Origin: Heptranchias perlo | Taxonomy: Eukaryota | Assembly: GCF_035084215.1 (NCBI RefSeq) | Contig: NW_027139442.1 | Location: 5,890,001 to 5,954,000, forward strand | Direction of reading: 5' to 3' | Length of the DNA stretch: 64,000 nucleotides | Shown here: positions 28,864-29,461 of the stretch, one piece after another | Layout: each line of letters opens with the position of its first letter | How positions within the stretch are numbered: the stretch's first letter is position 1 | Translations under genes and position numbers: made by a program | The notes under the pieces: generated by a model | Database searches by the model: none | Told to the model about the DNA's origin: nothing | Seen by the model: the letters and a program-made list of their open reading frames with translations, nothing else

Positions 28864-29014
28864 ACCAAATCGGCGATGGAAAGAGCTGTGATCGCCTGGG
28901 TTGAAATGGCAGGGTCGTGAGAAATTTGCTTAAATGGGAAACGTATAAAGGGGAGGGACAGAATAAATACCTCACTCACATCCAAACGCAAATTTCACTC
29001 ACATTCTTAATTCA

Positions 29015-29233
29015 TGATGTGGAGATGCCGGTGATGGACTGGGGTTGACAATTGTAAACAATTTTACAACACCAAGTTATAGTCCAGCAATTTTATTTTA
29101 AATTCACAAGCTTTCGGAGGCTTCCTCCTTCGTCAGGTACATTTACCTGACGAAGGAGGAAGCCTCCGAAAGCTTGTGAATTTAAAATAAAATTGCTGGA
29201 CTATAACTTGGTGTTGTAAAATTGTTTACAATT
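29015..29233. mobile_element. Inverted pair of Penelope-like terminal repeats (90-bp perfect palindrome) with 12-bp TSD
   Basis: Arms 29050-29139 and 29144-29233 are exact reverse complements; ATTCTTAATTCA at 29003-29014 and 29231-29242; same family as 23731-23858. Confidence 0.85.
29141..29181 (+). ncRNA. Minimal type I hammerhead ribozyme motif
   Basis: Stem I ATTTAC/GTGAAT, core CTGACGA, stem II GGAGG-AAG-CCTCC, GAAA, palindromic AGCT in place of stem III, UH. Confidence 0.65.
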
Positions 29234-29461
29234 CTTAATTCAGTAATCGCTGATACAATAACAGCACATCAGTCAGCATCCGTTGTACAAATCTGGGTAA
29301 AATAACACAGACTGAGCCAGTGTTGTCCGAGGATGGGACGGTAAATAATATTAAGCGTCCCTGGTATTTCTGTATCCCACCCGCCCAGTTGGCAATTCTA
29401 ACGGTTCTGGTATTTTGTCTCATTCACCAGACAAACTGCAAATTATAATCGATTGGAGGTT

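Follow-up and report, generated by a model that had tools for sequence, protein, structure and literature searches.

A palindromic insert between convergent histone genes

The window, that is, the whole stretch of DNA analysed here, comprises 64,000 nucleotides of the Heptranchias perlo genome (contig NW_027139442.1, positions 5,890,001 to 5,954,000) and contains a complete histone quintet (H1, H4, H3, H2A, and H2B; 25555-31457) with stem-loops. Within the quintet, H3 (28404-28889, plus strand; ORF 28404-28814, stem-loop and purine-rich downstream element 28843-28889) and H2A (29596-30056, minus strand; ORF 30056-29667, stem-loop and purine-rich downstream element 29641-29596) are both intact and convergent. 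The insert studied here lies between them, about 145 nt past the H3 stem-loop and outside both mature mRNAs, where a sequence-only reading had placed it. Elsewhere, the window holds further H2A matches (5292-5579 and 59315-59602), a tRNA gene (Rfam 60 bits; 58580-58651, minus strand), and, among 46- and 82-bp satellite arrays, an 84-bp-period array (50016-51027) that we take to resemble C2H2 zinc-finger repeats.

The region 29003-29242 contains two 90-nt exact reverse complements, 29050-29139 and 29144-29233, with CATT between them, exactly as described from the sequence alone. Its predicted folding is extremely stable (z = -24.8; none of 200 shuffles equally good). AATAAA occurs at 29186-29191, and the insert carries this signal on both strands. 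A 12-bp direct repeat (ATTCTTAATTCA) flanks the palindrome at 29003-29014 and 29231-29242.

A genome-wide search for the 19 bases ending at 29014 gave 69 occurrences on four contigs, all of which were inspected (70 rows for 69 sites, one having been fetched twice; the diverged site L240 was counted as empty). The element is present in three of the 69 H3-H2A spacers, and the other 66 run straight into the right flank with a single 12-mer. The insert therefore consists of 29015-29230 plus the 12-bp duplication, and the direct repeat that the sequence-only reading had noted is a true target-site duplication. The palindrome proposed in that reading stands, but the insert is larger: a 35-bp one-sided tail (29015-29049), present in the left arm only, had been overlooked.

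Both arms match long copies of a parent element letter for letter. The tailed arm (29015-29139, minus strand) corresponds to the stretch of parent pLTR that begins 3 nt ahead of the hammerhead core and extends to the ATG of the ORF, with an exact match to long copies such as L161 and L233; its minus-strand tail ends at this ATG (29015-29013), and the last 3 nt of the left duplication copy also match the parent. The tail-less arm (29139-29233, plus strand) starts 8 nt before the core, at TATA+31, next to the inferred RNA start, and runs to an upstream 3' end-point, sharing 1 nt with the other arm and 3 nt with the right duplication copy. Element and target thus overlap by 3 nt at each junction. 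In the parent sequence, the start of the right arm lies 5 nt upstream of that of the left arm, with one A common to both, and because of these different start positions there is a CATT "spacer" and a mismatch in the minus-strand stem I, neither of which is a special feature. The identity of the arms to each other and to long copies bears out the proposal that the insertion is young.

The other two carriers, L033 (G000:C1499:516522) and L034 (C1275:8417523), both lack 30 bp of the window (29139-29168), and their centre has a 3-nt overlap that also fits the parent. Two of the three carrier spacers are without an intact plus-strand core. As judged from the letters, the window centre and the paralog centre may both derive from one perfect palindrome through loss between short repeats (6 bp and 36 bp, respectively); such an ancestral form was not found among the first 50 of 1,787 back-to-back loci described below. 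Near 28934, 22 bp present in the paralogs are missing from the window spacer as well. In contigs from public runs, the empty site has a depth of 157-171, and the left junction is unbridged in those listed, the host flank being uncovered as well in one mapping.

The parent element and its hammerhead motif

A first similarity search gave 73 matches (40 of 72 candidates scored), one of which ran into a GIY-YIG C-terminus. The parent was found as 3,081-bp tandem units at loci L107, L109, and L112, with an open ORF of 902 aa in L107. The ORF contains a reverse transcriptase domain (RVT_1, E = 3e-10, above the cut-off) and, at the C-terminus, a GIY-YIG domain (E = 5e-4) whose 20.6 bits fall under the Pfam cut-off of 22.6, together with the motifs DKG, YIDD, and VYL...YIG. 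The combination in a single ORF identifies the parent, on sequence grounds, as an EN+ Penelope-like element (PLE), and supplies the autonomous RT-GIY-YIG partner that the sequence-only reading had suggested looking for. A CX4CxxC linker (CHGNLCKTC, residue 756 of a 905-residue translation) corresponds to the CX2-5CxxC motif between RT and EN that is given in PMC8557442 as the definition of the Neptune clade and is also found in Nematis; by that definition the parent is classed as a Neptune/Nematis-type PLE. We prefer Neptune only because a preprint on retrozymes (bioRxiv 10.64898/2026.07.22.740005) lists Neptune and Poseidon as the widespread vertebrate groups. Since both arms are exact pieces of this Neptune-type pLTR, the suspected Penelope-like origin holds. 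The copy-number check proposed along with it gave 42,259 exact genome-wide matches for a 47-mer of the arm and 6,819 for a 51-mer through the hammerhead, and the parent family is abundant and recently active.

In the parent, the stretch from stop codon to next ATG contains TATAAAT, followed at 39-47 nt by the hammerhead, then AATAAA, and finally a 35-nt segment that reaches to the ATG; in the pLTR-forming tandem units the hammerhead lies about 300 nt after the stop. The window holds a second copy of the family (23727-23859, plus strand), a single tailed arm of the CUGAGGA variant spanning about TATA+30 to the ATG and flanked by a 14-bp duplication with one mismatch (23720-23733 and 23861-23874).

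The insert carries a minimal type I hammerhead motif on the plus strand (29141-29181), recognizable by its core boxes, its stems I and II, and a palindromic AGCU in place of helix III, in agreement with consensus features given in PMC4209133. It is composed of stem I (29141-29146), CTGACGA (29147-29153), a bulged A, stem II (29155-29167), GAAA (29168-29171), GC, T, T29175 (H17), and stem I' (29176-29181), with the cut predicted after U29175. The same core lies on the minus strand (29102-29142) with a chimeric, mismatched stem I, since the tailed arm retains only part of its own 5' stem I strand. Folding of the isolated motif predicts stems I and II (z = -2.6 on the plus strand; z = -1.8 for the minus-strand copy with its extra mismatch), and the motifs proposed for both strands were thus recovered. 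The motif varies at N7 and in stem II and its loop. The Rfam search that had been suggested as a check was negative: no hammerhead model matched the insert, at the gathering score or among the 16 matches at E ≤ 10. Rfam matches of miRNA type were set aside as reflecting the long hairpin only.

Like the metazoan PLE hammerheads of PMC4209133, the window motif has CUGANGA and GAAA boxes, an extra base before stem II, a G-C first pair in stem II, a short stem I, palindromic bases 15.2-16.2, and no stable helix III. It differs from them in its 5-bp stem II and in being known from sequence, whereas the published motifs were assayed in vitro, where the monomer did not cleave and the dimer cleaved at a low level (PMC4209133). 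In Schistosoma, opposite-strand hammerhead pairs lie 100-700 bp apart (PMC4209133), whereas the window cores are only 10 nt apart, so that one transcript pairs them with each other. Folding predictions for read-through RNA from either strand place the core in paired state with a probability above 0.999 (unpaired below 0.001), as expected from the earlier suggestion that the hairpin masks its own ribozyme. The energy model showed no preference for the active dimer form (double hammerhead -19.7 kcal/mol, two monomers -20.6 kcal/mol, best alternative dimer -28.5 kcal/mol). For the anole element, the hammerhead motif is described as requiring the protein and as dispensable for insertion (PMC11167929). 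The hammerhead would be a passenger from the 5' leader of the parent, and in the window copy it would be locked in the 90-bp hairpin.

Ends, tails, and centres of sister copies

Counting the window insert, we examined 220 distinct arms and 72 inverted pairs. They came from loci L077-L236, which head the lists of 47-mer and 51-mer matches on contig C1. It should be noted that these are genomic footprints from one contig of one assembly and that about half of them were selected through an exact hammerhead word; the arm and pair statistics do not include loci L001-L076, whose selection had been based on junction, paralogy, or endonuclease. The outer ends of 210 of the 220 arms fell into two 3' windows separated by about 36 nt. 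A tailed arm was partnered with a tail-less arm in 66 of the 71 inverted pairs other than the window (p = 1e-14), and 67 of 72 pairs had target duplications of 9-15 bp (12-14 bp in 61 of these). The window insert and these 66 pairs belong, by their inverted 5'-truncated copy, tail at one end, and target-site duplication, to the EN+ PLE insertion type as judged by footprint. Such insertions, with an inverted 5'-truncated pLTR, a one-sided 30-40-bp tail, and a target-site duplication, are exemplified by Pen2a_Av (PMC3846280; scheme in PMC8557442), and the tail itself is described in PMC11167929, PMC8557442, and PMC3846280. The window insert resembles Pen2a_Av-type insertions in its head-to-head pLTRs, tail on one arm, target duplication, TATA-like motif, and palindromic inverted junction (PMC3846280). 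It differs in having arms of only 95-125 nt and no ORF, as one of thousands of such stumps, and in a duplication of 12 bp, compared with 8-10 bp in the rotifer examples (PMC3846280).

Per junction, element and target overlapped by 1.75 nt, compared with 0.72 nt in a simulated null (128 junctions). This modest excess differs from the in vitro results in PMC11167929, where no homology between target and start site is described.

The inner ends were concentrated at TATA+29..31, where 42 of 220 arms end, compared with 30 across 32 positions upstream; the corresponding numbers in the subset not chosen for an intact hammerhead were 18 of 98 and 19. In two variants that differ by 7 nt in the spacing of TATA and core, the peak lies at an unchanged distance from the TATA box. 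The RNA start of the family is inferred from a TATA motif; for Drosophila Penelope, the promoter is described as TATA-less and internal (PMC2377424). Many copies stop short of this predicted start or have lost bases from it (64 of 220 at TATA+32..47), and 58 extend at least 60 nt further upstream. About ten arms in L077-L236 begin 2-5 nt past the predicted hammerhead cut, and few start inside the ribozyme; cleaved RNAs may weakly be suggested as their templates, but some (L104) are mere alignment stops in variant arms.

Arms within a pair were compared at the C/G core position that defines the variants. They agreed in 48 of 54 pairs and were discordant in six, all within 12-14-bp duplications; 17 other arm-to-arm differences in 4,767 nt included no C/G change. 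Loci L130, L143, L173, L202, L210, L228, and L203 are single insertions with arms from different family variants; in L173, TATA+30 is the starting point of both arms, and two linked diagnostic bases distinguish them. Concordance in 48 of 54 pairs is also what one RNA would give, and later gene conversion could yield discordant pairs.

There are 1,787 loci with back-to-back hammerhead cores separated by 0-14 nt; a count by eye over the first 50 listed gave about 37 different centres. The exact 26-nt centre of the window insert was present at 19 of the 1,787 loci. In the 13 of them that were classed (six were left out for variant or gapped arms), the tail was on the left arm in seven and on the right arm in six, and the outer ends differed. 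Extra bases occurred at the centre of 25 of 50 short pairs, some being local re-copies.

Origin of the inverted pair

The locus is a real, young, and ordinary PLE stump in a histone spacer. We consider it likely that it arose as a short PLE insertion in which both target strands were cut 12 bp apart, each end primed a copy of the start of the element RNA, and the copies were joined head to head. The element's enzyme would make the two cuts, and each cut end, through pairing of perhaps 1-3 nt, would prime DNA synthesis on the first 95-130 nt of the RNA. The two outer ends would correspond to the pair of internal sites at which reverse transcription of the anole element is known to start, and the inner ends to run-offs at or shortly before the TATA-defined RNA start. 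End-joining would then unite the two copies, whose templates may sometimes have been two different RNAs. The window copy would later have been duplicated along with its histone repeat, the centre now differing by 30 bp between paralogs.

LINE-1 twin priming offers a general precedent, in that cDNA primed by both target strands leaves an inversion inside a target-site duplication. L1 twin-priming arms copy different parts of one RNA, whereas the window arms are both copies of one stretch, begun at two fixed sites. The protein of the anole Poseidon element PAc cuts and extends both strands, starting at two internal sites that flank the tail (PMC11167929), and PAc shares a tandem organisation with the window family, for which both-strand priming and two start sites bounding the tail are read from footprints. 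PAc differs in belonging to the Penelope/Poseidon clade and in that its hammerhead and tail overlap the ORF; in the window family both are located in the leader, with the tail reaching only to the ATG. The inverted arm is absent from the model presented in PMC11167929.

The inverted arm could instead have formed by self-priming or fold-back on one template within the same kind of insertion, and self-priming on an antisense template is how head-to-head junctions have been read in print (PMC3846280). The concordant arms in most pairs and the extra centre bases, some of them re-copied locally, would suit such an origin. However, the tail-less arm is the longer one toward the 5' side in 34 of 67 pairs (tailed arm in 21, equal in 12; five of the 72 pairs were excluded as not tailed/tail-less), which argues against fold-back of a single tailed cDNA. 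Furthermore, both outer ends lie at fixed sites and overlap the target ends beyond chance, and variants are mixed in six pairs. We therefore regard self-priming as unlikely.

It is very unlikely that the insert was copied whole from a master, as a discrete palindromic mini-element of the non-autonomous kind (MITE-, SINE-, or retrozyme-like). The 19 loci with an identical centre, and the recurrence of some centres among the first 50 loci, are what such copying would leave. However, centres vary between loci, the same centre occurs with the tail on either arm and with varying outer ends, and the arms are plain parent sequence, so a discrete, self-copying form of the ORF-less mini-element envisaged by the sequence-only reading is not supported. 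A master element, an idea prompted by a junction-biased BLAST, was ruled out by the same variation in centres, ends, and tail side. The insert resembles non-LTR retrozymes in being non-coding, PLE-derived, and equipped with a type I hammerhead, but those are direct tandem repeats with a hammerhead per unit (bioRxiv 10.64898/2026.07.22.740005), whereas the window has a single inverted pair with a target-site duplication and no direct tandem array at 29003-29242.

A fold-back artefact of sequencing or assembly, which a perfect palindrome within a repetitive histone cluster would invite and which the earlier reading had named as its own refutation, is hardly credible. The insertion exactly duplicates a site of which paralogs have one copy, its tail is asymmetric, its centre is built of parent sequence, there are about 1,800 sister structures, and two paralogs on two contigs share the insertion but have another centre.

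Equally remote is the adoption of the insert as a 3'-end, cleavage, or dsRNA module on H3/H2A read-through RNA, despite its position near the H3 stem-loop between convergent genes, its AATAAA on both strands, and its occurrence in three paralogs. In the U7/stem-loop pathway, RNA downstream of the processing site is discarded. Both genes keep a normal stem-loop and downstream element, so the insert falls in this discarded RNA; moreover, the insert is missing from 66 of 69 spacers, two of its three carriers lack an intact plus-strand core, and the core is predicted to be paired. An effect on the histone genes or their 3' processing, including the cleavage/poly(A) role that had been suggested, is thus unlikely, and the window copy most probably represents a neutral dead end.

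The idea of priming from both target ends can be taken one step further. The stumps may be retrovirus-like "strong-stop" products of PLEs, in which a dimeric enzyme carrying two RNAs, possibly paired via the palindromic AGCU of the hammerhead, primes both target strands, each at its own tail boundary, and runs to the capped 5' end; this proposal is tentative, and we rate it somewhat below an even chance. Head-to-head pLTRs, the one-sided tail, the target-site duplication, TATA/Inr in the pLTR, and opposite-strand hammerhead pairs have already been published (PMC8557442, PMC4209133, PMC3846280). A search of the open literature, main texts only, turned up no paper arguing for two-template double priming or RNA-start run-off in PLEs.

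The locus is useful as a clean test case: comparison with empty paralogous sites places its junctions at single-base precision, and the shorter centre of two histone paralogs records a change of the palindrome after insertion. Its sister copies, in their thousands, are relevant to the way in which PLEs produce head-to-head ends and one-sided tails. If the stumps are indeed strong-stop products, mixed-variant arms inside one target-site duplication would be direct genomic evidence for two templates per insertion, and an old puzzle of the whole class, its inverted pLTR and one-sided tail, would be explained.
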